The notes beneath the pieces are model-generated. The model was given only the letters and a program-made list of their open reading frames with translations, did no database searches and was not told the DNA's origin. Below, piece after piece: positions 18,812-42,933 of a stretch of DNA of 64,000 bases. The stretch is taken from NCBI GenBank assembly GCA_035551835.1, contig DASZMN010000072.1, positions 8,573 to 72,572 of the forward strand, written 5' to 3'. The position numbers were made by a program, and so were the translations under genes. The stretch is from Acidimicrobiales bacterium (lineage in GTDB: Bacteria > Actinomycetota > Acidimicrobiia > Acidimicrobiales > RAAP-2). Within the stretch, counting starts at the first letter, position 1. Each line of letters opens with the position of its first letter.

Positions 18812-18921
18812 TGTTCCCTCCCGTGCGTGTTGCCGACGGCTCGCGGACACGAGCGCCACCCCCATCTCTGTAACAGTGCATTCACGCGCGGGAAACGGAC
18901 TGCGAATGTTGCAGCCGTAGG

Positions 18922-21524: not shown

Positions 21525-21537
21525 GCGGCCCCACGCG

Positions 21538-26530: not shown

Positions 26531-26575
26531 CCCTTTCCTCTCTGCCGAATACGGTCGGTCCGACTAGGATGATTA

Positions 26576-26591
26576 TCTATCGCACGATAGA
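26576..26591. promoter_or_regulatory. perfect 16-bp palindrome TCTATCG-CA-CGATAGA, candidate TetR operator in the divergent promoter region
   Basis: Lies in the 101-bp gap between the carboxylase operon (start 26530, minus) and the TetR gene (start 26632, plus). Confidence 0.55.
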
Positions 26592-26631
26592 AATCCAGCC
26601 CATGACCCGCTCCTTCACGCGTCGTTAACAC

Positions 26632-27303: not shown

Positions 27304-27421
27304 CGCGCGTGTTCACCGTTCTGAAACGTTCTCGAACTCACCCGGAAACAGAAGGGGGTTTGAATCGACCTCGTTGACAGAGAGGCGACGGGGGGCGGCT
27401 CGCAGAAGGTGAGGAGGTGAG

Positions 27422-28066: not shown

Positions 28067-29679
28067 TGCCAGGTCTCACGTCGTCGGCGCGCACCGCCCG
28101 ACGCACCCTCGCCACCGCAGCGGTCCTTGCGCTTGCGGCGGCGCCAGCATGGGTGGCCTCGTCGCCTCCAGCCGGCGCGGCCTCGTACCCCACGAGTCAC
28201 ACGCTCAACCTGAGCTTCCTCCAAGACCCCGGCCAGCCGCCCGACCCCGACGTGTACTACGCGGGCGAGGGGCTGCTCCTGACGCGGAACATGTATGAGG
28301 GACTTCTGACCTATAAGGCAGACACCGCTCAGCGAGTGCTCGAGCCGGAGCTGGCCACCAGTTGGTCGGTGTCGAAAAATGGTCTCGTCTACAGCTTCCA
28401 GCTGCGCCACGGCGTGCTGTTCCATGACGGGACAGCCTTCACCTCGGCGGCCATCGCTCCTGACTTTGCCCGGCGTGCGGCCGTCAACGGGGGACCCGCC
28501 TACATGGTGTCCGATGTTGCCTCCGTGGCGACCCCGAATCCCTACCAGGCGGTCATCACCTTGAAGACGCCGAACTCGGCGTTCCTCGACTACTTGGCAT
28601 CCCCATACGGCCCGGCGATGATGAGCCCGACCGCGCTGGCGGCAAATGCCGGGTCGGACAACGACCAGACATACCTCGAAACGCACGACGTCGGGACCGG
28701 CCCCTACACCCTGACCGATGCGAAGGTCGGCGTGATGTACCAGATGAAGGCATTCCCGCAGTACTGGGGGCCCAAGCCCTACTACACGACCATCAACCTT
28801 CCGGTCATCGACGACCTCGCCACCGAGGAGATCGAGTTCAACGACGGTCAGATCGCCGCCATCCTCCATGACATGACCACCTCGGTGATCGCCCAGTACA
28901 AGGCCAAGACCAACGTGTCGTCGTACTCGCTCCCGAGCCTCCAGTCCGACACCGCATACGTGAACGAGAACAAGGGCCTTATGAACTCGGCCGCCAACCG
29001 GCTGGCCGTGCTGGGGGCGATCAACGTGGCCTACTTGGTGGCCGGCATCTTTCCTGGCCGCGGCACGGTGGCCAAGCAGGCCGGTCCGACCGGGCTCATC
29101 CCCGAGCCCTACGGCAAACAGAACATCGCCTACGACCCAGCGAAGTTGAAGGACCTCGTCAAGCGACTACCGGCGTCTGAGCGTTCGTTCACTGTGGGCT
29201 ACGACACCGGAGCGCCCGACGACCAGCTCCTCGCCGAGGACATCGGCGCCGAGCTGCAGGCCGACGGCCTGACCACCAAGGTCGTCGGGTACCAGACCTC
29301 CGAGATATTCGGCTGGGTGGGGAACGTCGCCGCCTCGCAGGGTCCGGGGAGCCCCAACATGCTCATCGACTACTTCTGGCCCGACACGTACAACACCTAT
29401 ACCTGGACGCACATCAGTTTCGATCCCTCGGGGGGCTTGCAGTACGTCAATTGCGACAGCGTGCCTGACGAGACCAACCTCAACACTCAAGCGCTCCAGA
29501 CGGGATCGCTCTCCACGTACAACAAGGTGATCGAGAACTCGGTGAAGAGCGGCTGCTGGCTCAACATCGTCGACAAAGACGACGCGATGGTCGCCCAGCC
29601 GTGGCTGAAGGGCATCCCCCAGGCGCACGTCGTGACCGACCCCGAGATGCTGCACCTCGCCAAGCTCCACCCAGGATGA
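28063..29679 (+). CDS. ABC transporter substrate-binding protein, family 5 (peptide/nickel/opine type), Tat/Sec signal
   Basis: N-terminus ARTARRTLATAAVLALAAAPAWVA. About 540 aa with SBP_bac_5-like pattern (YYAGEGLLLTRNMYEGLL, FHDGTAFT). Confidence 0.85.
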   Translation: MMPGLTSSARTARRTLATAAVLALAAAPAWVASSPPAGAASYPTSHTLNLSFLQDPGQPPDPDVYYAGEGLLLTRNMYEGLLTYKADTAQRVLEPELATSWSVSKNGLVYSFQLRHGVLFHDGTAFTSAAIAPDFARRAAVNGGPAYMVSDVASVATPNPYQAVITLKTPNSAFLDYLASPYGPAMMSPTALAANAGSDNDQTYLETHDVGTGPYTLTDAKVGVMYQMKAFPQYWGPKPYYTTINLPVIDDLATEEIEFNDGQIAAILHDMTTSVIAQYKAKTNVSSYSLPSLQSDTAYVNENKGLMNSAANRLAVLGAINVAYLVAGIFPGRGTVAKQAGPTGLIPEPYGKQNIAYDPAKLKDLVKRLPASERSFTVGYDTGAPDDQLLAEDIGAELQADGLTTKVVGYQTSEIFGWVGNVAASQGPGSPNMLIDYFWPDTYNTYTWTHISFDPSGGLQYVNCDSVPDETNLNTQALQTGSLSTYNKVIENSVKSGCWLNIVDKDDAMVAQPWLKGIPQAHVVTDPEMLHLAKLHPG

Positions 29680-29749
29680 AAAACCCCCACGAACACACGA
29701 GACAGGAGACCCGAACCACACGCCACACGAGCGCGACAGACAGTTTCAA

Positions 29750-29878
29750 CTGCAGCACCTAGGGTTCCGCGCCCGCCGGGGCGGTCTGGACCGAGAGATG
29801 AACAGGTTGCAGCCGCAGCCTGACGCGGAGGGATAAAAGCCCGGGAGGTTTCGGCCAACCGGGCTCTCCCTTTTTTGG
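29750..29878 (+). promoter_or_regulatory. ykkC: guanidine-I riboswitch (ykkC-yxkD class, subtype 1-like) including expression platform
   Basis: CCUAGGGUUCCGCGCCCGCCGGGGCGGUCUGGACCGAGAG...CUGACGCGGAGGGAUAAAAGCCCGGGAGG reproduces the invariant ykkC cores (CUAGGGUUCCG / GGnCCGAGAG / ACGnGGnGGGAUAAAAGCCCGGGAG). Terminator and U6 follow. Confidence 0.9.
29838..29876 (+). terminator. intrinsic terminator of the riboswitch expression platform
   Basis: AGCCCGG/CCGGGCU or alternatively GGGAG/CUCCC pairing, with an inner CGG-CCAA-CCG hairpin, followed by UUUUUU. The 5' arm is shared with the 3' strand of the aptamer. Confidence 0.75.
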
Positions 29879-29894
29879 TACGGGAGAGACACCT

Positions 29895-31298
29895 ATGCAG
29901 ACGATTTTCGAGATCGACGAGCACCACGCCGAGCTGGCGAGCAGCCTGGCAGCGCAGGGCGTGGAGTATGTGTTCGCGTCGTTCGTCGACATTGCCGGGC
30001 GGGCCAAGTCCAAGTGCGTGCCGATCGGGCACCTGCCCGACCTCCTCGCCGGGCACGAGCGGTACACGCCTCGAGGCTTGGGCAACCTCGGGCAAATGAC
30101 ACCGACCGAGGACGAGTGTGTCACCGTGCCCGACGCAAGCACGCTGTGCATCCTGCCCTTTGACCGGCGTTTCGCCCACATGGCCGCTGACCTCCACTAC
30201 GGCGGCACGGAGCCGTTCGCCCACTGCACTCGTTCGATCCTGAAGAAACAGCTCGACCGTGCCAGGGCGTCGGGCTACGAGTTCCAGCTGGGCATCGAGC
30301 CGGAGTTCTATGTCGTCAAGCCCTTCGCCGGGGACCGGCCGGCTCCCCCAGACGGCTACCTCGTCCCGTCGAAGCCTTCCGGGCGGCTGCGCCCGACCGC
30401 CGGCTACGACGTAGAAGCCACTTTGGACGTGATGGATTTCCTCGACCCGATGGTGCGAGCCATGCACGATTGCGGTTTCGGTGCATTCAGCTTCGACCAC
30501 GAGGGTGGGGACGGGCAGGTCGAGTTCGACTTCGAGTTTGCGCCGGCGCTCGTCACGGCCGATCGGGTGACCCTGCTGCGACTGATGGCCAAGCAGATCG
30601 CCAAGCAGATCGGGCTCATGGTGACCTTCATGCCCAAGCCCTACACGGAAGCATGGGGCTCGGGCGCCCACTTCAACATGAGCCTCACTGACCTCGAGGA
30701 AGGGCAGAACCTCTTCCGGGACCCGGAGGACACCCGCGGGCGCGGCTGGAGCAAGACCGCCTACGGCTTCGTTGCCGGCATCATGCGCCACGCGCCGGCG
30801 CTGGCCGCCATCTGCACGCCGACCGTGAACTCGTACAAGCGGCTCCAACCTCGTCTCTCCGACGGCACGGTGTCATGGGCCCCGACCTGGGCCGCCTACG
30901 GCGACAACAACCGGTCCTGCCTCCTGCGACTGCCCAGGAACCGTCCGGCCATCGAGAACCGCGGCGTGGACTCGGCCGCCAACCCTTATCTGGCAGCCGC
31001 CTTCCTCGTGGCGGCCGGGCTTGAGGGAGTCGCCCAGGGTCTGGACCCGGGGAATCCGGTCGAGGACCTGACCTACGACTGGTCTCGAACAGGGCCTTCG
31101 GGCGGAGACGTCCAGGCGACGAAGCTGCCGCGCACGTTGCTCGAGGCGATTGAGGCGTTCGACGCGGACCCCCTCACCCACGAAGTCTTCCCCAAGGAGT
31201 TCGTGACGGCCTACGTCGATATGAAGGTCGCGGAGTGGGAGTCGTACCACACGCGCATCTCCGAGTGGGAGCGCGAAAACTACCTGACCATGTTCTGA
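29895..31298 (+). CDS. glutamine synthetase-family ligase (gamma-glutamyl-amine synthetase-like, GlnA/PuuA-like)
   Basis: FVDIAGRAKSK beta-grasp, GIEPEFYVV, TFMPKP, GSGAHFNMSL and NSYKRL motifs of the GS catalytic domain. SD GGGAGAG. Confidence 0.85.
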   Translation: MQTIFEIDEHHAELASSLAAQGVEYVFASFVDIAGRAKSKCVPIGHLPDLLAGHERYTPRGLGNLGQMTPTEDECVTVPDASTLCILPFDRRFAHMAADLHYGGTEPFAHCTRSILKKQLDRARASGYEFQLGIEPEFYVVKPFAGDRPAPPDGYLVPSKPSGRLRPTAGYDVEATLDVMDFLDPMVRAMHDCGFGAFSFDHEGGDGQVEFDFEFAPALVTADRVTLLRLMAKQIAKQIGLMVTFMPKPYTEAWGSGAHFNMSLTDLEEGQNLFRDPEDTRGRGWSKTAYGFVAGIMRHAPALAAICTPTVNSYKRLQPRLSDGTVSWAPTWAAYGDNNRSCLLRLPRNRPAIENRGVDSAANPYLAAAFLVAAGLEGVAQGLDPGNPVEDLTYDWSRTGPSGGDVQATKLPRTLLEAIEAFDADPLTHEVFPKEFVTAYVDMKVAEWESYHTRISEWERENYLTMF

Positions 31299-31301
31299 CC
31301 G

Positions 31302-32096
31302 ATGACGACAAACGGGCACGACGGACCGGTGCGTTGGGAGGACCTCACGTGGCCGGAGATCGAAGCGCTGGTCCGGCGCCGCCCGGACGAGGTCGCCCTC
31401 TTGCCGGTGGGAGCCACCGAGCAGCACGGCCCTCACCTTCCGTCGGGCACCGACACCATCGTGGCCCGGGGGCTGTGCGACGCCGCTTCGTCGCGCACCG
31501 GCGCCCCCGTGCTCCCGGCGCTCGCACTCGGATGTAGCTACGGACACGGGACGCTGCTCCCGAGCACGATCTCGCTGACGCCCGAGCGACTGGCGGACGT
31601 CGTCGTCGACATGGTGTCCTGGCTCGCAAGCAGTGGCATCCGGCGCGTGCTCGCGGTCAATGGCCACTTCGGCAACCAGGCCTCTTTGTCGGTCGCCGGG
31701 GACCACCTGCGCCATGAGCGACCCGATCTGCGCTTCGGGGTCATCCACTGGTGGACACTCACGCCGGCCATCAGCGCGGAGACGCTGGCTGACGGCGGGG
31801 ACGTGCACGCCAACCGCGCCGAGACGGCGCTGATGCTCGCCCTGGCGCCGCAGCACGTCCGCCTCGGCCAGCTCCACCAGGCCGACGACGAAGACCGCAC
31901 TGCGGGACTCGTCTTCCGCTACACCGCGGCCGTCCTGTCGCGCAACGGGGTGACCGGGCGGCCGTCGGAGGCGACGCCCGAGCTCGGGCACAAGCTCCTC
32001 GACGAGGTGGTCGACGAGTTGTGCGCCGCCATCACCCGCGGCCGGACCGAGGAGCCACCGCTGCGCGGTGCCCCCGCGAGCGCGGCGATCGCGTGA
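31302..32096 (+). CDS. creatininase-fold amidohydrolase (creatinine amidohydrolase / MftE / ArfB family)
   Basis: LLPVGATEQHGPHLPSGTD and VNGHFGN motifs. Starts 3 nt after the GS-like stop. Confidence 0.85.
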   Translation: MTTNGHDGPVRWEDLTWPEIEALVRRRPDEVALLPVGATEQHGPHLPSGTDTIVARGLCDAASSRTGAPVLPALALGCSYGHGTLLPSTISLTPERLADVVVDMVSWLASSGIRRVLAVNGHFGNQASLSVAGDHLRHERPDLRFGVIHWWTLTPAISAETLADGGDVHANRAETALMLALAPQHVRLGQLHQADDEDRTAGLVFRYTAAVLSRNGVTGRPSEATPELGHKLLDEVVDELCAAITRGRTEEPPLRGAPASAAIA

Positions 32097-32788
32097 CGTC
32101 GCCCATGCTGGTCGGCATCTTGTGCGGACGGTCACCGGCTGATCGGTACTCGACCCACCGCGGCTACGTCTCTTCGGTGGCGGGCGTGGGTGCCGTGCCG
32201 GTCGTGTTGCCCGCCGGCCCGGACACCGATCCCCTCGCCCTGACCGCAGTGGTCGACCGCTGCGACGCACTCATCGCCACGGGAGGTGGCGATGTCGACC
32301 CCGACCTCTACGCCGGCACGGCGGCGCGGTCCCACGAGTCGTTGATGGACGTGGATCCCAGCCGCGACGTCGCCGAGATCGCGGCGGTCCAGCACGCGCT
32401 GGGTCTGGGCAAGCGGGTCCTCGGCGTGTGCCGCGGCGCGCAACTGCTCGCCGTCATCGGGGGCGGGACACTCATTTCCGACCTGGTGGAGAAGGGCATC
32501 GACGGCCACTGGCAGGAGGAGCGCCAGTACGAGGCGGTGCACGGGGTCCGCGCCGAGCCGGGCTCCGTGGCGGCGGGGCTCCTCGCCAGGGTCGCACGGG
32601 TCAACTCCATCCACCACCAAGCGATCGCGGACCCGGGCCAAGTACTGCGGGCGACGGCCTGGAGCGACGACGGCGTGATCGAGGCCGTCGAGTCTCCGGG
32701 GCTCCTCGGCGTGCAGTGGCATCCCGAACGTCTCTCGGCCGTCGACCCGCGTCACCTGGCGCCGTTCGCGTGGCTGGTGGGCCGGTGA
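32093..32788 (+). CDS. class I glutamine amidotransferase-like gamma-glutamyl hydrolase (PuuD / peptidase C26-like)
   Basis: GVCRGAQLL nucleophile elbow, NSIHHQAI, GVQWHPE. GTGA overlap with the creatininase-like stop. Confidence 0.85.
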   Translation: MTSPMLVGILCGRSPADRYSTHRGYVSSVAGVGAVPVVLPAGPDTDPLALTAVVDRCDALIATGGGDVDPDLYAGTAARSHESLMDVDPSRDVAEIAAVQHALGLGKRVLGVCRGAQLLAVIGGGTLISDLVEKGIDGHWQEERQYEAVHGVRAEPGSVAAGLLARVARVNSIHHQAIADPGQVLRATAWSDDGVIEAVESPGLLGVQWHPERLSAVDPRHLAPFAWLVGR

Positions 32789-34806
32789 CCCTCTCGCACG
32801 CCGCAGCCATCGGATCCAAGGCGCCTGGACCGCACGAGCAAACCGAGCGCGGCACGACGCGTGAGCCGGTCGCCGCCGTGTCGGATCTGCACGTCAATTT
32901 CGTCCGCGGGGGCAACGACGTCCACGCCCTGCGCGGGGTGACGCTCGACGTCGGCCCCGGCGAGATCGTCGGGATCGTCGGCGAGTCCGGGTCCGGTAAG
33001 TCCGTGCTCGCCCTCACCATGCTCGGCCTATTGCCGGCGCGTCCGAGCCCGACCGTCACCGGCTCCGTGCGCGTCTGCGGCACCGACATGGTGACGGCAA
33101 CGGCGGAGGAGGCGCGCCTGGTGCGCCGCCAGCACCTCGGCGCAGTGTTCCAGGACCCGATGACGTCGCTCAACCCGACCATGCGCGTCGGCCGCCAGAT
33201 CCAGGAGGCGGCCGGCTCGGCCGAGGAAGCGCTGCGGCTGCTCGATGCCGTCGGCGTGCCTGAGGCCAAGCGCCGCCTGCGGGCCTACCCCCACGAGCTC
33301 TCCGGTGGCCTCCGCCAGCGCGTCATGATCGCCATGGCGGTGGCGGGGTCACCCTCTCTCGTCATCGCGGATGAACCCACCACCGCGCTCGACGTGACCG
33401 TCCAGGCGCAGATCCTCGAACTCATCGCCTCCCTGCGCGACGAGGTCGGCACGAGCTTCATCCTGGTCACCCACGATCTCGGCGTCGCAGCGCAGATCTC
33501 GGACCGCATCGCCGTGCTCTACGGCTCGCGTCTGGCGGAGGTGGGGCAGGCGGCCGGAGTGCTCTCCGCACCCGTCCACCCCTACACGTCGGGCCTGCTG
33601 CGGTCTCGCCTCGTGGTCGGCTGCGACCGCAGCCGCCCGATCGTCACGCTCCGCGGCGAACCACCCGATCCGCGGGCGCACCCGCCGGGCTGCCCGTTCG
33701 GCCCGCGTTGCGACCTGCACACCGATATCTGCGACGCCGCGCTCCCCGAGCTCGAGGTCGTCATGACCGCCGACGCGGTCCCGCGCCAGGTGGCCTGCGT
33801 CCGCTGGCAGGAGGCGCTTGGGGGCGCGATGGGGGTGGATCCGGCGGACCCCTGGCCCGAGATCGACCTCGGCGTCCAGGGCAGCGCGCCGCCTGGCGTG
33901 CTCGTGCACGACGTGTCGAAGTCCTTTCCCATCGGCAAGGGGTTCCGCCGCCAGCACCTGAAGGCGTTGCGCGGTGTCTCACTCGAGGTGAACAAGGGCG
34001 AGGCCGTGGCCCTGGTCGGCGAGAGCGGCTGCGGGAAGTCGACGCTGCTTCGCTCGATTGCCGGCCTGCAGCCAATCGACTCGGGCTCCATTGAGTTCGG
34101 GCGTGGCGCGCGGCCCCAGATGGTGTTCCAGGACGCCGGCGCTTCGCTTACACCCTGGCTGACGATCGGCGAGCTCGTCGGCGAGCGGCTGCGCTCGGAG
34201 GACCTGAGCCGATCGGAGCGCGCCGAGCGAGTACGCGCCGCCTTGACCGAGGTGGGCCTGCCGGCCGAGATGGCCACGGCCAAGCCCTCGCAGCTCTCGG
34301 GCGGCCAGCGCCAGCGCGCTGCGCTGGCCCGCGCCACCGTGGTCCCGCCCGACGTGCTGCTCTGCGACGAGCCGACCAGCGCCCTCGATGTCTCCCTCGC
34401 AGCGACGGTGCTCAACCTCATCGGGCAGTTGCGGCGCGACCTCGGCGTCGCGGTGCTCTTCGTGACCCACGACCTCGCGGCGGCGCGGGTGGTGGCCGAC
34501 CGCATCGCCGTGATGTACCTGGGGCGCATCGTCGAGTGCGGGCCCTCGGACGAGATCTGCACGTACCCGGCGCACCCGTACACCGAGTCACTCCTGAACG
34601 CCGTGCCCGACCTCGCCCGAACCACCGTCCGTCTCGGGGGCGAGCCGGCGAGCCCGCTCGACCCCCCGTCGGGATGTGAGTTCCACCCGCGCTGCCCCAA
34701 GGCCGAGCCTGCGTGCGCGTCCGTCGACGCACCGCTGACGTCGTGGGGGACATCGAGCCGCGAGGTGGCGTGCCCGGTCTTCCTGCGCACGGTGGGTGGC
34801 CGCTGA
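32785..34806 (+). CDS. fused double ABC ATPase of a Dpp/Opp/Nik-type importer (DppD-DppF fusion)
   Basis: Two full cassettes: GESGSGKS / LSGGLRQR / [12 protein letters not shown] and GESGCGKST / LSGGQRQR / [16 protein letters not shown] overlap with the upstream gene. Confidence 0.9.
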
Positions 34807-35690
34807 TGGCGGTCGCCGAGGCCTACGTTCCCGGTCGGGCGGGCCGCCGCGGCCTGAAGTCGATCGGCGGCGCGTCCAAGGTGTTCACGGGTGCCACCAA
34901 GGTGGACAAGGCGGGCATCATCTTGCTCGGGTTGCTGGTCGTCCTGGCGGTGTTCGCACCTCTGATCGCGCCCTACAACCCGATCGTCCCCTCCGGTGTC
35001 CCCTTCACCTCCCCCCTGCACGGGGGCCACCTGATGGGCACGGACGAGGTCGGCTACGACATCTTCAGTCGGGTCCTCTTCGGCCTGCGCACCAGCATGC
35101 TCGGCGTCCTCATCGTCGTGACGTCGGGGGTCGTCATCGGCGGCCTGATCGGGCTCGTGGCCGGCGTGGCCGGCGGGTGGGTGGACACGGTGCTGATGCG
35201 CTTCACCGACCTGTTCCTCGCGCTGCCCGGCCCGCTGCTCGCCATCGCGATCGCCGCCTCGCTCGGCCCGAGTTACGCCCATGTGCTCGTGGCCGTGGCG
35301 ATCGTCTGGTGGCCCTTCTACGCGAGGATCATGCGCGGGGAGGTGCGCGCCTGGGCCGCCCGTCCCCATTTGGAGGCGGCGGCCCTGGCCGGCGCCGGGC
35401 CCGTCCGCCGCGGGCTCCGCCACTTGCTGCCCGGCGCGGTGCCCGCGATCGTCGTCACCGCGAGCCTCGACGTGGGCAACCTGGTCGTGACGCTGGCGGC
35501 GTTGTCCTTCCTCGGGCTGGGCGCGCCCGCGCCGTCCCCGGAGCTCGGAGCCATGGCCGCGCGCGGCCTGCAGTTCCTGCTCCAGCAGTGGTGGATCCCG
35601 GTGATGCCCGGGATCGCCGTTGCCCTCCTCGCACTCGGCGCCAACCTCACGGGTGACGCCGTGGCCGACGCAACCGGGCAAGGCGTATGA
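34806..35690 (+). CDS. ABC importer permease (DppC/NikC-like)
   Basis: ATG overlaps the ATPase stop (TGATG). N-terminus LLGLLVVLAVFAPLIAPYNP is typical of OppC/DppC. 6 TM segments. Confidence 0.85.
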   Translation: MAVAEAYVPGRAGRRGLKSIGGASKVFTGATKVDKAGIILLGLLVVLAVFAPLIAPYNPIVPSGVPFTSPLHGGHLMGTDEVGYDIFSRVLFGLRTSMLGVLIVVTSGVVIGGLIGLVAGVAGGWVDTVLMRFTDLFLALPGPLLAIAIAASLGPSYAHVLVAVAIVWWPFYARIMRGEVRAWAARPHLEAAALAGAGPVRRGLRHLLPGAVPAIVVTASLDVGNLVVTLAALSFLGLGAPAPSPELGAMAARGLQFLLQQWWIPVMPGIAVALLALGANLTGDAVADATGQGV

Positions 35691-36694
35691 CCGGCCTGCC
35701 GAGGTTCGTGCTCAAGCGCATCGGCGCCCTGCTGATCATCATCGTCATCCTCACGGCGATCATCTTCTTACTGCAGAAGCTGAGCGGCACCAACCCAGTG
35801 CACGCCTACCTCGGCGCCAACGCGTCCAAAGCGGCCATCGCCAAGGAGTCGGCCGTCCTCGGGTACAACAAGCCCGTACTCAACCAGTATTTCCACTACC
35901 TTGGGAACCTCTTCCACGGCAACCTGGAGAACTCGCTCCGTACGCGCCGCCCGGTCTCGACCGACCTCGCCGCCTACCTGCCGGCCACGATTGAGTTGAC
36001 GATCGCCGCCCTCGGCATCGCCCTCGTGCTCGGCACCGCGCTCGGCCTGGCGTCCGCGGGTCGTTGGCGCGGGGCCAGCGTCATGCGGGTGGCGATGATC
36101 GCCGGTGCCTCGGTCCCCTCCTTCCTCCTCGCCCTCCTCGGCGTGCTCATACTCAACGGTGACTTGCATCTGCTGCCGGCGAGCGGTGACACCGGCGTGG
36201 CCAACCCGCCGACGGGCCCGACCGGGATGATCATCCCCGATGCCCTGCTGCACCTGCAGTTCAACACCGCGTGGGACGGCTTCGAACACCTGATCCTGCC
36301 CGCGCTCTGCGTGGCCATCGGCCCGGCGGTTTCCATCGGACGCGTGTTGCGTGGCTCGCTGCACGCATCCATGCGGTCGGACTTCGTCCGCACGGCCCGT
36401 GCCAAAGGCATCACCGAGAGGCTCGTCCTGTTCCGTCACGCGTTGCGCAACTCTCTGTCCGCCGCGCTCTCCATGACCGGACTCCAGGTGGGCCTCATGT
36501 TCGCCGGCGTTGTGGTCGTCGAGACGGTCTTCGCCTGGCCAGGCATAGGGCTCTACACCGAGCAGAGCATCCCGACCGCGGACTTCCCCGCCATCGCCGG
36601 CGTCACGCTCGTGCTCGGCGTCCTCTACGTCGTCATCAACGCGCTGGTGGACGTCCTCCAGGCAGTGGTCGATCCGCGGGTCGCGCTCGAATGA
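35687..36694 (+). CDS. ABC importer permease (DppB/NikB-like)
   Basis: ATGA overlap. N-terminus FVLKRIGALLIIIVILTAIIFLL is typical of DppB/OppB. Confidence 0.85.
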   Translation: MTGLPRFVLKRIGALLIIIVILTAIIFLLQKLSGTNPVHAYLGANASKAAIAKESAVLGYNKPVLNQYFHYLGNLFHGNLENSLRTRRPVSTDLAAYLPATIELTIAALGIALVLGTALGLASAGRWRGASVMRVAMIAGASVPSFLLALLGVLILNGDLHLLPASGDTGVANPPTGPTGMIIPDALLHLQFNTAWDGFEHLILPALCVAIGPAVSIGRVLRGSLHASMRSDFVRTARAKGITERLVLFRHALRNSLSAALSMTGLQVGLMFAGVVVVETVFAWPGIGLYTEQSIPTADFPAIAGVTLVLGVLYVVINALVDVLQAVVDPRVALE

Positions 36695-36745
36695 GGACGG
36701 GCCGCCGAGAACACGCCGAACAACACGTACAAAAAGGAGAACGCC

Positions 36746-37810
36746 GTGACGGAAAGGCCCCCAGGGCCGATCAGCCTGAACCGCTACGAACTCGAACTCG
36801 CATGGCAGGGCATTCCCACATTTATGAAGCTCCCGGTCTGCCTGACACCCGAAGACCTCAGGGCGGGCAAGGTCGACGTGGCGGTCGGCGGCGCGCCATG
36901 GGACGGCACCGCCGTGACGCGGGCCGGCACCCATATGGGCCCCCAGGCCATCCGGACCTGCGACCACCTGCCGTCTCCTCCCTACGCCCGCCCCCACCTG
37001 CACGTACGGGTCGACCCGTTCGAGCACCTGACCGTGTGCGACTACGGCGACGCCGAGATCATCATCGGGAGCACTGACCGCACCTTCGAGAACATCCGCA
37101 CCTTCGTGGCCGAGATCCTCGGGGGCGGCGCCATGCCCGTCATCCTGGGCGGCGATCACGGCATCACGTGGCCGGCCGCCACCGCAGTGGCGGACGTCTA
37201 TGGGTACGGGAAGATCGGCATTGTCCACTTTGACGCCCACGCCGACACCGCCCCCGACATGCAGGGCGTCCTGGCGGGCCACGGCACGCCCATGCGCCGC
37301 CTGATCGAGAGCGGCGCGGTGCTAGGCCGCAACTTCGTCCAGGTCGGGTTGCGCGGCTACTGGCCGACACCCGACATCGTGGCCTGGATGGAGGAGCAGG
37401 AGATGCACTCGCACTTCATGGCCGAGGTCCAGCGGCACGGCTTCGACACCGTGCTGGAGCGGGCCATCAACGAGGCCCTCTCGGGCAGCGCGGATCACCT
37501 CTACATCTCGGTCGACGTCGACGCGGTCGACCCGGCCCACGCGCCCGGGACCGGCTCGCCCGAGCCGGGTGGCCTCACCAGCGCCGAGGTGCTCCGCGCC
37601 GTGCGGCGGATGTGCGCCGAGGTCGGCATGGTGGCGATGGACGTGGTCGAGGTCAGCCCTCCCTACGACTCGGGCAACAACATCACCGCGCTCTTCGCGC
37701 ACCGCTGCGTCCTCGAGGCTCTGACGGGGACGGCCATGCGTCGGCTCGGCCTGACCACGCCCGACTACCTCGACGAGACCGCTGCGGGCGGGGCCGAGGG
37801 CAGCGAATGA
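36746..37810 (+). CDS. arginase-fold ureohydrolase (agmatinase/guanidine- or guanidino-compound hydrolase family)
   Basis: [44 protein letters not shown] start with AAAGGAG upstream. Confidence 0.85.
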   Translation: MTERPPGPISLNRYELELAWQGIPTFMKLPVCLTPEDLRAGKVDVAVGGAPWDGTAVTRAGTHMGPQAIRTCDHLPSPPYARPHLHVRVDPFEHLTVCDYGDAEIIIGSTDRTFENIRTFVAEILGGGAMPVILGGDHGITWPAATAVADVYGYGKIGIVHFDAHADTAPDMQGVLAGHGTPMRRLIESGAVLGRNFVQVGLRGYWPTPDIVAWMEEQEMHSHFMAEVQRHGFDTVLERAINEALSGSADHLYISVDVDAVDPAHAPGTGSPEPGGLTSAEVLRAVRRMCAEVGMVAMDVVEVSPPYDSGNNITALFAHRCVLEALTGTAMRRLGLTTPDYLDETAAGGAEGSE

Positions 37811-38886
37811 GCATGGTCGACGGCTCGCTCTTGGCCACTGGCAACTCCGACGCAGCCGGCGCATCGTCGCTTGCCGCGCTCTACACGGACCCGGGGGTGC
37901 TGGCCGCAGAGCGGGCCCGCCTCTTGACGCGCAGCTGGGCTCTGGTGGCGTCGGATGAGGAGGTCGCCGGGCCCGGCTCCTACGTCACGGCATTCGTGGG
38001 CGGCATCCCCGTCGCCGTCGTGCGCGGCCACGACGGGGTGCTGCGCGCCTTTCACAACGTGTGCCGCCACCGCGGCATCACGCTGCTCGAGGGGACCGGG
38101 ACGGTGGGGCGGTTCATGACCTGCCCGTACCACCAGTGGAGCTACGCCTCCACCGGGGAGCTCGCCCGCGTGCCCCAGGCCGACGACCAGTTCCCCTCGC
38201 TCGAGCTGTGCGACCTCGGTCTCGTCGAAGCGCAGGTGGCTGTGTGGTGCGGGATGGTCTTCGTCAACCCCTGGGCCGAGTCGCCCCCGCTGGCCGAGGA
38301 GATGTCCGGTCTCGACCTCCGGTTCGAGCGGTTCCTGGCCGGTCCCCTCCGACAGGTGGCCGTGGTCCAGTACGAGGCGGCGTGCAACTGGAAGCTGCTG
38401 GTGGAGAATCACATCGACGTCTACCACCTGTGGTACCTCCACGCCAAGACGCTCGCCGCGTACGACCATCGGGCGTTCAGCTGGGAGTCGCTCGGCGACA
38501 ACTGGTGGAGTCTCGAGCCCCTCAAGGCGCCGTCGGGAAGGGCGGCGGACTGGGTTCCCCCCGACATGCGCGGGACGATCGGGGCATATCTGTTGTTCCC
38601 CAACCTCATGCTGGTGACGACCGACGACTACTTCGCCTCCTACGACGCCGTTCCGGTTGCGCCGGACCGCACGCGGCTCACGTTGCGGGTGCGGGCGCCG
38701 GCCGACGCCGACGCCGACGCGCTCGTGACGTCGATCCGCTCGTTCATGGCCGAGGACGTTGCGGCGTGCGAGCGCATGCAACAGGGCACCGCGTCACCGT
38801 GGTTCGGCGTGGCTGCCCTGGCCACGACGCACGAGGAGCCGATCCGTCGATTCCACGCCGCCCTCGGGCGGCGGCTGGCCCAGTGA
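37807..38886 (+). CDS. Rieske [2Fe-2S] non-heme iron oxygenase, alpha (catalytic) subunit
   Basis: CRH-x17-CPYH Rieske motif and DVYHLWYLH (D-x2-H-x4-H) mononuclear iron motif. ATGA overlap with the upstream gene. No beta subunit or reductase gene adjacent. Confidence 0.8.
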   Translation: MSMVDGSLLATGNSDAAGASSLAALYTDPGVLAAERARLLTRSWALVASDEEVAGPGSYVTAFVGGIPVAVVRGHDGVLRAFHNVCRHRGITLLEGTGTVGRFMTCPYHQWSYASTGELARVPQADDQFPSLELCDLGLVEAQVAVWCGMVFVNPWAESPPLAEEMSGLDLRFERFLAGPLRQVAVVQYEAACNWKLLVENHIDVYHLWYLHAKTLAAYDHRAFSWESLGDNWWSLEPLKAPSGRAADWVPPDMRGTIGAYLLFPNLMLVTTDDYFASYDAVPVAPDRTRLTLRVRAPADADADALVTSIRSFMAEDVAACERMQQGTASPWFGVAALATTHEEPIRRFHAALGRRLAQ

Positions 38887-39515
38887 GCGGCGAGCCTGAG
38901 CGGCCGGCGGAGTTGGCCGACATCCAGGGCTCGTGGCGCCGCGACGGGCGCCGGCTGCACGACGGGCCCTGGGACGAGATCAGCGACGTCCTGTGGCTCC
39001 AGGTCGGCGTGCACTTTTGCGACCTGCGCACGGCGTACGCCGGCACCGTGCCGTCCCACGGCCTCGATCTCGCCCAGGCCTTCAGCGGGACTATCGACGT
39101 CGCCCACGGGGACATCACCTTCCACCACGATCTCGACTCCTTGGACCGCGATCCCGCGCACCCCGACGTGAGCACCGTCCACCGCGTGGCCGAGGCCATG
39201 TACGAACGGGGGCCGGGGTTCGAGGAGCGCTGGGTCCTGGCGTCGCTGCCCGACGACGACGGCGCCGTCGCCGAGCTGCCCGCGGCGGACGGGGGGGCGC
39301 TCGCTCGCATCGTGCGGGTCGGCGCGCTGGCGCTGGCGGTCTGGGGCGGGCGCACTCCCGGCGGCGCACGGTACACCGCACCCCACGGGTGGGCACCTGA
39401 GCCCGCGACGCCGGGCGAACGCGGCGTCGCCGACGCCGACGAGGCGGTCCACGCCCTCGCCTTCGGCGGCCCGCTCCCGGGGAGCTGGCAGTCGGTCACC
39501 ACGATGCCGTCGTGA
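38883..39515 (+). CDS. hypothetical protein (210 aa), translationally coupled on both sides
   Basis: GTGA overlap at both ends (38883-38886 and 39512-39515) and high GC3. No family recognised. Confidence 0.55.
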   Translation: MSGEPERPAELADIQGSWRRDGRRLHDGPWDEISDVLWLQVGVHFCDLRTAYAGTVPSHGLDLAQAFSGTIDVAHGDITFHHDLDSLDRDPAHPDVSTVHRVAEAMYERGPGFEERWVLASLPDDDGAVAELPAADGGALARIVRVGALALAVWGGRTPGGARYTAPHGWAPEPATPGERGVADADEAVHALAFGGPLPGSWQSVTTMPS

Positions 39516-40333
39516 GCGCGGACGGCGTGCGTCGGGTCGTACTGCTGACGCTCGGGTGGGAGGACCTGCCCAAGTCGGTCTCGGTGCACGGCGCGCCGCC
39601 CACCGAGCGGTTGCGCGAGCCCGTGCCCGGCGTCCTTCTCCAGTGCGACGGGGGCTGGCTGCTGCTCGACACGGGCTTCAACCCGGCGCTCATCCGGGAT
39701 CCCGCCCTCAAGCGCCGCTTCCACGGGGACCCGGGCTTCCGGCCGGTGCTGCCCGGGCCGGGCGAGCCGCTCGAGGAGGCCCTGGCGGGCGCGGGCATCG
39801 CGCTCGAGCAGATCTACGCCGTCGGCCTCAGCCACCTGCACAACGACCACGCCGGCGGGTTGCGCCATTTCTCGGGCCGGGTGCCGGTGCACGCGCAGAA
39901 AGCCGAGTTGGACTACGGCCTCGCCAACCACCCCGACCCCGAGCACCACGCCATGTTCCGTATCGACTACGACGACCCCGCCATCGACTGGCGCCTGGCC
40001 GAAGGCGACGGCGAGATCGCCCCGGGTGTGACCGCGGTCCTCACGGCGGGCCACACCCCCGGGCACCAGAGCTTCATCGTGGACCTCGACGAGTCGGTGG
40101 GCGGCGGTGGTCTGGTCTTCGCGTTTGACGCGGCGGACCTGACCGAGAACATCGAGCACGAGCTCCCGATCGGGGGTCGGGTCGGGGTGCCGCCCGAGGC
40201 CACGATCGAGCCGATCCGCCGCCTCAAGCGCCTGGCTGCGACCCGGGGCTACTCGCTCATTCCCGGCCACGATCCGGTGGTGTGGCCCCGCCTCACCCGC
40301 GAGCTGGCCGAGCGTTTCGCCACCACCGGTTAG
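39512..40333 (+). CDS. metallo-beta-lactamase fold hydrolase (N-acyl homoserine lactonase-like)
   Basis: HLHNDHAGG (HxHxDH), LTAGHTPGH, IPGHD motifs. Confidence 0.8.
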   Translation: MSADGVRRVVLLTLGWEDLPKSVSVHGAPPTERLREPVPGVLLQCDGGWLLLDTGFNPALIRDPALKRRFHGDPGFRPVLPGPGEPLEEALAGAGIALEQIYAVGLSHLHNDHAGGLRHFSGRVPVHAQKAELDYGLANHPDPEHHAMFRIDYDDPAIDWRLAEGDGEIAPGVTAVLTAGHTPGHQSFIVDLDESVGGGGLVFAFDAADLTENIEHELPIGGRVGVPPEATIEPIRRLKRLAATRGYSLIPGHDPVVWPRLTRELAERFATTG

Positions 40334-41508
40334 CGCAACGCCATCGCCGCCAACGCCGCGTACCCCTGGGCGCCGCGGCGCAGCGACTTGAGGCTCACGT
40401 GCTCGTCGACCTGGTGCGCCATCGACTCGACCCCCACGCCGAAGCCGATCGTGGGGATGCCGCACACGCCAGCGCTGTACGACCCGTTCGTGCAAAAGGA
40501 GTAGTGCGTGGGTGTGGGGTCGAGGCCGACCGTGCCCAGCGCGCCCGTGGCAGCGCGGACCAGCGCCGAGTCCTCCGGCGTCCACCAGGCCGCCGCGTAC
40601 TCGGGCAGCGAAAAGGTCCGGCCCGTCCACGTCGCGAACGTCGCCTCCACCAGCTTCACCTCGAGTCCGGGCTGCTCGGGCCAGCCGGCCCAGGCGCGCC
40701 GCGCGGCGTCGACGAGGAGTGCGACGACCGACTCCTCGGTTTCGCCAGGGATGAACCGACAGTCGAAGCGCGCCACCGCGGAGCCGGGAATGGTCGAGAC
40801 CGAGGGGTAGGGATCGGAGTGCACGTCGATGCAGTTGAGGTCCCGCGCCCCGAGCTGGGGGTGGGCGGGGTGCGTAATCCGAGCTGCCTCGTCGATCAGA
40901 GCCGCCACGGCCAGAGCCGCGTTGAGCCCGTAGCCCGCGTGGCCCGCGTGACAGGCGCGGCCGGTCACCGTAACCTCCACCTTGGCCCGGCCGCGCTGGC
41001 CGATGCACAGCTGCGTGTCGTTGGGCTCGCTCGTCACGAAGGCATCCGGTCTCCAGGTGGCCACCGGCTCGGCGAGGGCGCCGCCCTCCATCTCCTCCTC
41101 GCACACGCTGGCCACCACGACGACGCGGCTCGCGGCCACCGGAGCCGCCACCGCCACGCCCCAGATGGCGGCGGCGATCGACGCCTTCTGGTCGCAGATG
41201 CCGAGGCCGTACAGCATCCCGTCGCGGACCATGCCGCCGAAGGGATCGACGCTCCAGCGTTCGGCGGAGTGCAACGGTATCGAGTCGATGTGGCCGTCGA
41301 TCATGAGCGTCGGGCGGTCGGCGGGTCCCAGCACACCGACTGCGTTCCCGCTGTCGTCGACCCCGACCTCGTCGAAGCCGGCCGCCTGCATGGCGCCGGT
41401 CACGAGCGCGACCGCCTCACCCTCGGTTCCCGACACGCTGCTCGTTTGCGCCAGCGCGACAGCCAGAGCGCAGAGCGCGTCGTCGTCGACCGGGAATTGC
41501 GTCGTCAC
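40330..41508 (-). CDS. M20 family metallopeptidase / amidohydrolase (ArgE/DapE/carbamoylase-like)
   Basis: MIDGHIDSIP, GLGICDQK and SEPND-like motifs. GTG start overlaps the upstream stop (GTGA at 41505-41508). Confidence 0.85.
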   Translation of the reverse strand: MTTQFPVDDDALCALAVALAQTSSVSGTEGEAVALVTGAMQAAGFDEVGVDDSGNAVGVLGPADRPTLMIDGHIDSIPLHSAERWSVDPFGGMVRDGMLYGLGICDQKASIAAAIWGVAVAAPVAASRVVVVASVCEEEMEGGALAEPVATWRPDAFVTSEPNDTQLCIGQRGRAKVEVTVTGRACHAGHAGYGLNAALAVAALIDEAARITHPAHPQLGARDLNCIDVHSDPYPSVSTIPGSAVARFDCRFIPGETEESVVALLVDAARRAWAGWPEQPGLEVKLVEATFATWTGRTFSLPEYAAAWWTPEDSALVRAATGALGTVGLDPTPTHYSFCTNGSYSAGVCGIPTIGFGVGVESMAHQVDEHVSLKSLRRGAQGYAALAAMALR

Positions 41509-42797
41509 CGCGCCACACCGATGAGGCGCGCACTGCGCGACAGCGCGCCGGGTGAGAGGAAGCGCCCGATCGGCTCGCCGGCCAGCGCGCCGTCTTCGTA
41601 CACGACTTCGCCGCGCACCAGGGTCGCTTGCACCACGCCAGACAGCACCCGACCGCTGAAGGGCGAGCGCCGGTGGCGCGTCTGGAGCGTGTCCGGGCCC
41701 ACGGTCCACGTCGCCGCCAGATCGACCAGCGCCACGTCGGCGTCCGAGCCGACGGCGAGCGCACCCTTGCCGGTGAGCGCGCACAGCCGGGCCGCGGCAG
41801 TGCGCAGACGGTCAAGGACCGCGAGCGGGAGGTCCAAGGTGAGGAGCACCGACAGCGTCGTCTGCACTCCCGACACGCCGGCGAACGGCGCGTCGCCCTC
41901 CTTCTCTTCGGGCGGGCACGGCGAGTGGTCGGACGCGATCGTGTCGATGCTGCCGTCGAGGACGGCACGCACCATGCGAAGGCGATTGCTCTCGTCGCGG
42001 ACAGGAGGGCAGCACTGCGCGTCGGGCCCGATCCGATCGGCGGCTTGGTCGTCGAGGGCAAGGTAGTGCGGGCAGGTCTCGATCGTGGTTCCCGGCCAGC
42101 GCATCGACTCCTCGACCGCCTCGCTCGAGGAACAGTGGACGACGTGCAGGCGCGCTCCGTGGCGGACGGCGGCCGCCCCGGCCGTCGCGACGGCGGCGAC
42201 CTCGGAAGCCATGGGACGGTCACGCCCACCCCGCTCGAAGAGGACCGGGTCCTCGCAGTGCACGGCGACTGGGACATCCGCCGCGGCGGCGGCGCGCATG
42301 CCGCGGTCGAGGGCCTCGGGCGTGCAGGCTGGGAACTCGGGCCACCCGCTGTCACAGAGAAAGGCCTTGAGCCCCACGACCCCGGCGTCGAGGAGCGAGT
42401 TCAACGCCCCGAGATTGCGCGGGACGAGCCCACCCCACAGCGCGAAGTCGACCACGGACACTCCCGTCGCGCTGGCGCGCTTGTCGCGCACGGCGGCGGC
42501 CGTCAGGGTCGGGGGGTGCGAGTCGATCGGCATGTCGACGACCGTCGTGACCCCGCCGGCGGCCGCAGCCAGGCTCCCGGTGGCCCAGCCTTCCCACTCG
42601 TCGCGCCCCGGTGCGTCGAAGTGCACGTGGGCGTCGACCGCGCCGGGGAGCACGTCCAAGCCGTCGGCATCGACCGACCGCCGGGCCGGGCCACCCCGGC
42701 CAGCCTCGGTGAGCGCGACGATCACGCCGCGGTCGACGACCACGTCGCGCGGCACGCCGCGCACCCTGCCCGCACGCACCACCAGATCGGCCGTCAC
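41505..42797 (-). CDS. allantoinase / cyclic amidohydrolase (dihydroorotase-hydantoinase superfamily)
   Basis: GAVDAHVHFDAPGRDEWEGWATGSLAAAAGGVTTVVDMP closely follows the allantoinase N-terminal pattern. GLKAFL (carbamylated Lys) and VHCED present. GTG 42797 follows GGGAGA. Confidence 0.85.
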   Translation of the reverse strand: MTADLVVRAGRVRGVPRDVVVDRGVIVALTEAGRGGPARRSVDADGLDVLPGAVDAHVHFDAPGRDEWEGWATGSLAAAAGGVTTVVDMPIDSHPPTLTAAAVRDKRASATGVSVVDFALWGGLVPRNLGALNSLLDAGVVGLKAFLCDSGWPEFPACTPEALDRGMRAAAAADVPVAVHCEDPVLFERGGRDRPMASEVAAVATAGAAAVRHGARLHVVHCSSSEAVEESMRWPGTTIETCPHYLALDDQAADRIGPDAQCCPPVRDESNRLRMVRAVLDGSIDTIASDHSPCPPEEKEGDAPFAGVSGVQTTLSVLLTLDLPLAVLDRLRTAAARLCALTGKGALAVGSDADVALVDLAATWTVGPDTLQTRHRRSPFSGRVLSGVVQATLVRGEVVYEDGALAGEPIGRFLSPGALSRSARLIGVAR

Positions 42798-42933
42798 CAG
42801 GTTCTCCCGGATTCCATGTCCCGCGTACAGTCTTGGGCTTCGAGGTTTCTGCCGGATCTCGCCCGTGTAATTGCTCTGTGAATTCGGCACTGCTCGCGCT
42901 TCGGCGGCAACGCCTCGGTGCGAGGATGCCCCC

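Follow-up and report, generated by a model that had tools for sequence, protein, structure and literature searches.

We have analysed a 64,000-nucleotide stretch of DNA from an Acidimicrobiales bacterium (GenBank assembly GCA_035551835.1, contig DASZMN010000072.1, positions 8,573 to 72,572; called the window below, with a G+C content of 69%), in which a guanidine-I riboswitch precedes ten open reading frames (ORFs) at 29895-40333. Near the end of this operon, the gene for a Rieske oxygenase is followed directly by that for a 210-aa protein, which is predicted here to be a distant relative of the hemiaminal lyase MgdL. The features of the operon are as follows.

29748-29849, + strand: guanidine-I riboswitch aptamer (RF00442, 72.1 bits for a gathering score of 63, E 7.4e-11)
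29828-29876, + strand: expression platform, a terminator hairpin and T6 (from sequence reading and the minimum-free-energy fold)
29895-31298, + strand: predicted GmaS-type gamma-glutamyl-amine ligase, glutamine synthetase (GS)-like (Gln-synt_C, 315 bits)
31302-32096, + strand: creatininase-family metal amidohydrolase (PF02633, 221 bits)
32093-32788, + strand: peptidase C26 / class-I glutamine amidotransferase-like gamma-glutamyl hydrolase (PF07722, 167 bits)
32785-34806, + strand: fused double ATPase of a Dpp/Opp/Nik-type ATP-binding cassette (ABC) importer (two ABC_tran and two oligo_HPY domains)
34806-35690, + strand: ABC permease, DppC/NikC-like (BPD_transp_1 and OppC_N)
35687-36694, + strand: ABC permease, DppB/NikB-like (BPD_transp_1 and BPD_transp_1_N)
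36746-37810, + strand: arginase-fold ureohydrolase (PF00491, 268 bits)
37807-38886, + strand: alpha-only Rieske monooxygenase of the CntA/Stc2 structural type (Rieske and Ring_hydroxyl_A domains)
38883-39515, + strand: predicted MgdL-family hemiaminal lyase (hhalign against the published MgdL family)
39512-40333, + strand: metallo-beta-lactamase (MBL)-fold hydrolase, acyl-homoserine-lactone (AHL) lactonase-like (Lactamase_B, 50 bits)

The ten ORFs downstream of the riboswitch are translationally coupled. The TGA of the GS-like gene (31296-31298) is followed by the ATG of the creatininase-like gene at 31302, GTGA junctions are found at 32093, 32785, 38883 and 39512, TGATG at 34804 and ATGA at 35687 and 37807, and a 51-nt gap with AAAGGAGAA precedes the GTG at 36746; the last stop codon of the operon lies at 40331-40333. 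Such an arrangement is far beyond chance, and the same gene set has been found again in dozens of genomes. An earlier reading of this DNA (the original prediction) had described a riboswitch-controlled, translationally coupled operon; every junction that it listed proved to be as stated, and its family assignments were confirmed by Pfam and NCBIfam, with the 210-aa protein giving no match in either. Its count of eleven genes has to be corrected, as ten follow the riboswitch, and the binding-protein gene (28063-29679) lies upstream, where it overlaps an isochorismatase-like gene by ATGA at 28063.

In the Rfam covariance-model search, the RF00442 match spans the full model (positions 1-107), and guanidine-I is the sole Rfam RNA family in the whole window; between 26400 and 29950 no second Rfam family was found even at E<=1, and this includes any other ykkC-type model in Rfam. 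A purpose-built covariance model scores the window aptamer at 102.9 bits. The expression platform, overlooked by a simple terminator scan on account of its long loop, was revealed by folding. It is a hairpin at 29828-29870, the 5' arm of which is the 3' part of the aptamer, with T6 at 29871-29876, and the minimum-free-energy fold of 29745-29900 includes this hairpin and then UUUUUU. After T6 there is the Shine-Dalgarno-like GGGAGAGA, and then the ATG at 29895. Judged from these features, aptamer and terminator have the usual design of a transcriptional ON switch, and the operon is predicted to be under guanidine-I control.

The original prediction had also credited the Rieske protein with complete motifs, which has been borne out: C86-x-H88, C106-x2-H109 and E200-x3-D204-x2-H207-x4-H212, as well as D317, are all invariant in 28 homologues. 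The AlphaFold model of the protein has a predicted local distance difference test (pLDDT) value of 86.6, and whole-chain Foldseek comparison gave template modelling (TM) scores of 0.80-0.81 with CntA and of 0.77-0.78 with the stachydrine demethylase Stc2; a sequence search of solved proteins also ranks CntA first, at 113 bits. No beta-subunit gene was detected in the operon by domain scans. The model thus points to a CntA/Stc2-type, alpha-only monooxygenase of the structural class that N-dealkylates cationic amines.

A close precedent for the gene that follows is provided by Vreelandella boliviensis, in which two genes, mgdH and mgdL, supplement a guanidine-I-led cgdAB-gca-atzF operon (Sinn et al. 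2025, PMC12508155). Methylguanidine is hydroxylated by the 2-oxoglutarate dioxygenase MgdH, and MgdL is an N-(hydroxymethyl)guanidine lyase in which Asp49 and Arg51 are essential, as established by mutagenesis; the pair acts on free methylguanidine, and MgdL did not accept N,N-disubstituted hemiaminals (PMC12508155). In the discussion of that study, creatinine is given as the only documented methylguanidine precursor, and the guanidine-I class is described as discriminating against methylguanidine (PMC12508155).

Pfam, NCBIfam and PDB sequence-profile searches gave no match for the 210-aa protein, and its approximately 150 relatives are all annotated as hypothetical and have no Pfam domains. 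It had originally been called an orphan, a label that can now be replaced by membership in the MgdL family, with a published relative of known reaction (PMC12508155). The reference set consisted of MgdL and 15 diverse family members from the supplementary alignment of that paper. When the two families were compared profile to profile, hhalign gave a probability of 98.4% and an E of 5.7e-15 over 146 columns, and a hidden Markov model of the published MgdL family finds the 210-aa ORF at E 1.2e-10, with no other match in the window. Only the comparison of family with family is decisive for this protein, the weaker ones being pairwise BLASTP against MgdL (E 0.2, not significant) and hhalign against the single MgdL sequence (E 0.026).

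The residues that matter for catalysis are in place as well. The catalytic D49 and R51 of MgdL correspond to D47 and R49 of the window protein, within an FCDLR motif that is invariant, and this Asp and Arg are kept in 58/58 untruncated Rieske-adjacent homologues. Among the same homologues, W16, R18, W40, F82, G84, D112, E126, E135 and W137 are found in all or nearly all, and Q42, D104, W/F99 and Y/F133 are kept with a few exceptions. R23, R89 and R109 are additional conserved arginines of the lyase. The MgdL-type Glu, Asp and Trp residues of the guanidine site are conserved in the alignment as D104, D112, E126, E135 and W137, their placement in the pocket being sequence-based. The AlphaFold model, built on 37 relatives, is all-beta with a pLDDT of 90.6, and its top fold match is yeast Hri1/YLR301w (3RBY), a pair of lipocalin-like barrels. 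By its profile match and conserved residues, the 210-aa protein is a distant MgdL-family member with its catalytic apparatus intact.

A genome scan anchored on the Rieske protein gave 80 loci (cited by L numbers), 65 of which are actinobacterial relatives at 42-91% identity. An MgdL-family ORF lies directly 3' of the Rieske gene in 57 of these 65 loci by strict count, and in about 60 (57-61 overall) once a mislabelled ORF, a fused ORF and the two loci with the lyase on a second Rieske gene have been resolved. The pair spans Acidimicrobiia and related actinobacterial genomes. It comes right after cgdAB-gca-atzF in L030, L039, L043, L046-L048, L051, L054, L055, L059, L062 and L065 (with an MBL gene between atzF and the Rieske gene in L051), and in six loci (L046, L048, L051, L055, L062 and L065) a guanidine-I riboswitch starts the whole operon from cgdAB-gca-atzF through the Rieske gene to that for MgdL. 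A riboswitch, carboxylase or arginase-fold gene is present in 35 of the 42 long loci. The Rieske-MgdL pair is a conserved core and not a passenger.

The creatininase-like gene is contiguous with the GS-like gene in 39/65 loci, and these two, often together with the C26 gene, adjoin the Dpp-type transporter almost everywhere. The creatininase-like/ligase module directly follows Rieske-MgdL in L026, L028, L029, L031, L037, L045, L059, L061 and L066. No ligase or creatininase gene was found in the fetched stretch (<=10 kb each side) of the Rieske-MgdL loci L021, L027, L033, L034, L040, L047 and L058.

Two side observations concern these proteins. L050 and L060 have two paralogous Rieske genes each, one flanked by MBL and isochorismatase-like genes and having no lyase, the other on the opposite strand and carrying the MgdL homologue. 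The MgdL homologue of L051 (L051:11020-11640) matches Pfam PF16815 (yeast Hri1) at 63 bits, and the published MgdL alignment includes a green-alga sequence (PMC12508155); the eukaryotic HRI1 family may share the MgdL lyase fold or chemistry.

The arrangement at the locus is that of Vreelandella with the oxygenase swapped, which leads to our central inference that the Rieske enzyme would make an N-(hydroxyalkyl)guanidine from which the lyase would free guanidine. Taken together, we hold with moderate confidence that the operon is guanidine-inducible and serves to import a substituted guanidine, most likely N-methylated, and to degrade it by Rieske/MgdL-type dealkylation. The Rieske enzyme would hydroxylate the carbon on a guanidino nitrogen, in the simplest case the methyl of methylguanidine, and so act as a non-homologous replacement for the 2-oxoglutarate dioxygenase MgdH; being a Rieske enzyme and not a 2-oxoglutarate/Fe(II) dioxygenase, it would need an electron-transfer partner instead of 2-oxoglutarate. 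The resulting N-(hydroxyalkyl)guanidine, an unusually stable hemiaminal, would be split by the MgdL-like lyase into guanidine and an aldehyde (formaldehyde from methylguanidine). Free guanidine would hold the riboswitch ON, and would then be cleared by the adjacent carboxylase pathway and/or a ureohydrolase. As an alternative substrate, an alpha-hydroxylated guanidino acid may yield glyoxylate and guanidine. In agreement with the original prediction, the gene set appears to be undescribed, as it is not in guanidine reviews or in full-text searches pairing guanidine riboswitch with GS, Rieske or creatininase, or methylguanidine, creatine or guanidinoacetate with Rieske. What is new here is most likely a guanidine dealkylation that depends on an MgdL-type lyase and in which a Rieske oxygenase takes the position of MgdH, inside a larger, partly unexplained catabolic operon.

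Several points weigh against this dealkylation scheme. All protein functions given here are predictions. Neither the operon nor the scanned ORFs of the window yielded a reductase or ferredoxin for the Rieske enzyme, in a scan that was not exhaustive. In the profile alignment, the window lyase shares only about 22% identity with members of the MgdL family, so that it could use a different hemiaminal, for example guanidinoglycolate. L017, L019 and L020 have a Rieske gene and no MgdL homologue, and the truncated L016 likewise lacks one. Since the guanidine-I class discriminates against methylguanidine, induction would need the product guanidine or basal read-through. Nor does the scheme explain why genes for forming and hydrolysing the same bond, those of the ligase and the hydrolase, are so tightly linked with the genes for a creatininase-like enzyme and an importer of the peptide type.

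A further point of this kind is that the internal riboswitch is lost or decayed in the close relatives L003, L006, L008 and L009. L008:1857-2000 retains only the 5' third of the riboswitch and L009:2013-2050 only the terminator arm, and L003 and L006 have no riboswitch remnant between the binding-protein and ligase genes; in L002:1931-2011 the riboswitch is without its 5' CTAGGGTTCCG part and the T-run is spoiled. Hairpin relics thus persist in relatives that lost the aptamer. In L015 and L023 an intact riboswitch lies ahead of the isochorismatase-like gene instead, and in other lineages the riboswitch precedes the arginase-fold gene (L019, L020, L058) or cgdA. As the riboswitch precedes different genes across lineages, its placement beside the ligase gene is not conserved, and its position is evolutionarily labile.

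The remaining genes of the operon have been assigned with varying precision. The GS-like protein scores 436.2 bits with the type III/GmaS equivalog TIGR03105, narrowly below the cutoff of 469.6, and 287 bits with the GlnA model TIGR00653 (cutoff 429); its nearest solved relatives are a glutamate-methylamine ligase (9qur, 294 bits) and GmaS (7cql, 255 bits). GmaS proteins are recognized by having no GS Asp50' residue and by a Trp (RhGmaS Trp300) that replaces the catalytic Glu of the Glu-flap (PMC7948447). In the window protein, as judged by eye and with no RhGmaS alignment, there is no DGSS motif of the Asp50' loop, and NSYKRL...VSWAP is found where GS has GYEAP, i.e. Glu has become Trp. Plain glutamine synthetase was rejected on these grounds, namely the GlnA score below cutoff and the absent Asp50' loop and flap Glu, and the protein is predicted to be a GmaS-type amine ligase. 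No N-methylglutamate synthase or dehydrogenase gene was found in the operon or its flanks by domain scans.

The creatininase-like protein has the EQHGPHLP, NGH and HANRAET motifs; it scores 131.5 with the creatininase equivalog TIGR04448, below the cutoff of 235, and about 80 bits with solved creatininases. A protein search with it returned close relatives only (>=63% identity), mostly from Acidimicrobiales where a source was named, and hence no independent context. The C26 protein scores 79.6 with the PuuD equivalog NF008471 (cutoff 266), and the MBL protein 99.7 with the AiiA model (cutoff 375) and about 85 bits with solved AiiA lactonases. By these scores, the three proteins can be assigned at the family level only. 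In many loci, L019, L020, L027, L051 and L058 among them, a gene of the MBL fold is a neighbour of the Rieske or arginase-fold genes. More weakly inferred than the dealkylation itself is the role of the ligase and the C26 protein, which probably process methylamine or another small amine via a gamma-glutamyl intermediate. We also entertain, at low confidence, the notion that the ligase, the creatininase-like and C26 proteins and the peptide-type importer form an undescribed gamma-glutamyl-dependent branch of guanidine catabolism, in which the ligase would act on guanidine, methylguanidine or an amine product, working with the Rieske/MgdL dealkylase and widespread in soil Acidimicrobiia.

For the arginase-fold protein, the nearest solved relatives are GdmH (7esr, 179 bits), GbuA (167) and GpuA (164), with metformin hydrolase subunit A at 117. 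All of its metal ligands are present, with GGDH, DAHAD and DVDAVD aligned to the ligand positions. The residues specifying free guanidine in GdmH are Thr97 and Trp305 in Synechocystis numbering (PMC11410670); the former corresponds to Val57 and the latter to a Ser in the window protein. Trp305 is matched by Thr in GbuA and GpuA, which the window protein also resembles in its DAHAD and GHGTPMRR motifs. From these residues, the enzyme is more likely to cleave a substituted guanidine than guanidine itself, and, with an open pocket that is not guanidinase-like, it probably converts a substituted guanidine into urea and an amine, although this role is less certain than that of the Rieske/MgdL pair.

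The arginase-fold protein is also the most conserved one of the operon, with 89-97% identity in L001-L010 versus 66-90% for neighbouring genes, and, by comparison with L019 and L020, an identity of 87% even in metagenome-assembled genomes labelled Actinomycetes and Acidobacteriota. Such conservation suggests that the protein is under strong constraint or was transferred recently. Two adjacent arginase-fold paralogues are found in several relatives (L014, L015, L019, L020, L023 and L027, with L012 at about 16500-18300 on the - strand), some of them directly behind a guanidine-I riboswitch, an arrangement that recalls the heteromeric dimethylguanidine/metformin hydrolases DmgH/MefH. In L012, an Rfam match to 5_ureB_sRNA at 15964-16258 presumably marks just a ureB gene.

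The fused ATPase of the importer scores 484 bits with a dipeptide ABC subfamily model, and the best NCBIfam models of the DppC/NikC-like permease are nickel and oligopeptide permeases, all below cutoff. The transporter accompanies ligase and creatininase-like genes in lineages that have no arginase-fold gene (L051, L037, L066), which argues against a pure nickel-supply role. It probably imports the parent compound, a role that is again less certain than the dealkylation.

In addition to the operon, the following genes flank it.

19791-26530, - strand: guanidine carboxylase pathway, with cgdA/B (UAAP1/2), urea/guanidine carboxylase and allophanate hydrolase, divergent from the operon
26632-27303, + strand: TetR-family regulator (TetR_N, 52 bits), upstream of the isochorismatase-like/binding-protein pair
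27422-28066, + strand: isochorismatase-like amidohydrolase, biuret hydrolase / N-carbamoylsarcosine amidase-like (PF00857, 135 bits)
28063-29679, + strand: family-5 (Dpp/Nik-type) solute-binding protein (SBP_bac_5, 170 bits), upstream of the riboswitch
40330-43154, - strand: YgeY-like M20 hydrolase and allantoinase-like cyclic amidohydrolase, convergent with the operon (start of the second uncertain)

In the upstream cluster, the carboxylase scores 1681.7 with TIGR02712 (cutoff 1303.85), the TIGR03424 and TIGR03425 scores of 317 and 262 are both above cutoff, and the allophanate hydrolase gene encodes Amidase and AH_C domains. These matches indicate a complete, putative guanidine carboxylase pathway. 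The nearest solved relatives of the isochorismatase-like protein are an N-carbamoylsarcosine-amidase-related protein and biuret hydrolase, and its BiuH score is 72.6 for a cutoff of 370. The binding protein matches solved NikA and DppA weakly, at about 85 bits, and is too distant from them for its ligand to be named. No Rfam riboswitch was detected ahead of the carboxylase cluster (26530-26632) or of the isochorismatase-like/binding-protein pair (27303-27422). Since the carboxylase cluster and this pair flank the TetR gene, two control layers, TetR and the riboswitch, seem to act on the locus.

On the other side, the M20 hydrolase scores 284 with NF009555 (cutoff 321) and the allantoinase-like protein 398 with TIGR03178 (cutoff 357.85). 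The two genes are syntenic with the operon in L001-L010, and lie on the same strand as Rieske-MgdL in L004, L033 and L047. The pair resembles a hydantoinase with a carbamoyl-amidohydrolase, which hints at a cyclic ureide or guanidine as a possible parent substrate. Less certain than the dealkylation, too, is the role of the creatininase-like, MBL, isochorismatase-like, allantoinase-like and M20 hydrolases, whose probable targets are cyclic or acylated guanidine/ureide precursors that they would open or deacylate. Beyond the allophanate hydrolase gene (17819-19824) there is a second arginase-fold gene on the - strand, agmatinase-like and with 1WOG as its best solved relative, for which the ORF 17819-19177 overstates the gene, the probable start being near 18850; a nitrilase-superfamily C-N hydrolase is encoded on the + strand at 18922-19824. 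From its gene families, the neighbourhood appears to be a mosaic of modules for nitrogen-rich guanidine/ureide compounds, reshuffled in order and usually under guanidine-I control.

The original prediction had placed gamma-glutamylation at the entry of the pathway: the GS-like ligase would glutamylate guanidine or a substituted guanidine, the Rieske enzyme would oxidise the adduct, and the C26 or creatininase-like enzyme would free glutamate. That the ligase gene is the first after the riboswitch, and that its product is without the ammonium-handling residues of a true GS, would fit such a route, as would the many loci (L026, L028, L029, L031, L037, L045, L059 and L066 among them) in which Rieske-MgdL is contiguous with the genes for the ligase and for the creatininase-like and C26 proteins. 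Creatininase chemistry is the hydrolysis of a cyclic acylguanidine, and a by-eye mapping onto the amine-pocket residues of RhGmaS suggests the changes Gln175 to Ser and Asn188 to Asp, which would make the pocket larger and more acidic, and this is weak evidence. However, the Rieske-MgdL pair occurs in seven loci with no ligase gene within the fetched flanks, the Vreelandella MgdH/MgdL pair uses free methylguanidine (PMC12508155), and the riboswitch adjoins isochorismatase-like, cgdA or arginase-fold genes in other lineages. The analogy with aniline dioxygenase systems (AtdA1-A2-A3 / TdnQ-T-A1), from which the scheme was drawn, fails as well, as the operon has neither a beta subunit nor a reductase, the fold of the Rieske protein is that of CntA and Stc2, and MgdH/MgdL is the better match; because the Rieske-MgdL pair occurs without the ligase, the aniline-dioxygenase-style scheme is unsupported. 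We thus consider this entry route unlikely. Of the proposal that a substituted guanidine is oxygenated or demethylated, the substituted guanidine and the direction of demethylation stand, and gamma-glutamylation as the step before the oxygenase does not, since the constant partner of the Rieske enzyme is the MgdL lyase and not the ligase.

A similarly doubtful route would start from creatinine, creatine or guanidinoacetate. The creatininase-like enzyme would open a creatinine-type ring, the Rieske enzyme would hydroxylate the alpha-carbon or the N-methyl of the guanidino acid, and the lyase would give glyoxylate or formaldehyde and guanidine or methylguanidine, in the manner of ureidoglycolate lyase, with the arginase-fold enzyme as a guanidino-acid amidinohydrolase. 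Three creatinine-pathway families are indeed present at the locus (creatininase, the N-carbamoylsarcosine-amidase-like isochorismatase fold and an arginase fold close to GbuA/GpuA), and the nearest Rieske structures use zwitterionic carboxylates with a cationic nitrogen, carnitine and stachydrine. The syntenic allantoinase-like and M20 hydrolases, the peptide/amino-acid-type importer and the standing of creatinine as the only documented methylguanidine precursor (PMC12508155) point in the same direction. Against this, the creatininase equivalog score is far below cutoff (131.5 vs 235), the GmaS-type ligase and the C26 hydrolase are left without a role, Vreelandella MgdL rejects N,N-disubstituted hemiaminals (PMC12508155), and the residues shared with MgdL argue for the same small substrate. 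Plain guanidine assimilation, with the arginase-fold protein as a nickel guanidinase, the Dpp/Nik transporter as its nickel supply, the GS-like protein assimilating ammonia and the rest as passengers, would agree with the guanidine-I control, with GdmH as the best solved relative and with nickel transporters as the best NCBIfam models of the permeases and binding protein (all below cutoff), but is highly improbable, and the GdmH guanidinase with nickel importer was rejected, given the replacement of Thr97 by Val and of Trp305 by Ser, the persistence of the transporter where no arginase-fold gene is found, a ligase that is without the Asp50' loop and catalytic Glu and fails the GlnA model, and a Rieske-MgdL pair that forms the conserved core.

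The preferred reading, Rieske/MgdL-type dealkylation of a substituted guanidine, would extend what is known of the range of substituted-guanidine catabolism. The description of an oxidative demethylation of methylguanidine that uses a dedicated hemiaminal lyase dates only from 2025, and concerns a few halophilic Gammaproteobacteria with a 2-oxoglutarate dioxygenase; the present locus indicates that, in dozens of uncultured Acidimicrobiia from soil and peat, the MgdL family is also paired with a Rieske oxygenase not homologous to that enzyme, usually under guanidine-I control or beside guanidine carboxylase genes. A predicted function is thereby given to a family of hypothetical proteins without Pfam domains and to a large Rieske clade that lacks annotation, together with a lead for the yeast Hri1 fold. 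The ligase, creatininase-like, C26 and importer genes provide a handle on the natural source of methylguanidine and on the guanidine nitrogen sources of soil bacteria. If the gamma-glutamyl branch were true, its natural substrate might reveal where environmental methylguanidine originates, for example in creatinine-type rings or oxidised methylated guanines.

Among known systems, the Atd/Tdn and Puu/Ipu pathways resemble the operon in that a GS-like ligase, a class-I amidotransferase-like hydrolase and a Rieske oxygenase stand in one operon. Unlike Atd/Tdn (AtdA1-A5 / TdnQ-T-A1-A2-B), the window has no oxygenase beta subunit and no reductase, and its Rieske protein is of another structural class; it further differs from both groups in that the ligase is of the predicted GmaS type and the conserved partner of the oxygenase is a lyase. 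CntA and Stc2 share with the window protein the complete Rieske and 2-His-1-carboxylate motifs and the lack of a beta subunit, and their chemistry, hydroxylation of the carbon next to a cationic nitrogen leading to C-N cleavage, is the one proposed here. The identity is only 23-25%, however, and the proposed substrate is a guanidinium, whereas theirs are quaternary ammonium compounds. CntB and GbcB are encoded beside their oxygenases, whereas the window Rieske gene has no adjacent reductase gene; a dedicated lyase follows the window oxygenase, and the CntA/Stc2 systems need none. GdmH and DmgH/MefH are similar to the window enzyme in their arginase fold, with the metal ligands complete, in being under guanidine-I control and in their connection with (methylated) guanidines; the window enzyme differs from GdmH in lacking Thr97 and Trp305, and the operon from DmgH/MefH in having a single ureohydrolase gene, where some relatives have two adjacent paralogues.

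The mgdH-mgdL system of Vreelandella offers the closest comparison. The hosts are an Acidimicrobiales bacterium here and a halophilic gammaproteobacterium there, and no class II guanidine riboswitch was found in the window. The window oxygenase is an alpha-only Rieske protein, with no 2-oxoglutarate/Fe(II) oxygenase domain in the operon, and the extra genes are those for the GmaS-type ligase, the creatininase-like and C26 proteins, a ureohydrolase that is probably not a guanidinase and the MBL hydrolase. A nitrate/sulfonate (NitT/TauT)-type importer is usual in guanidine regulons, whereas that of the window is of the Dpp/Opp/Nik type. Common to both systems are a guanidine-I ON switch at the head of the operon, an ABC importer, the presence of cgdAB, gca and atzF at the same locus (and in the same operon in relatives such as L051), and an oxygenase gene directly followed by an MgdL-family gene with the catalytic Asp-x-Arg.

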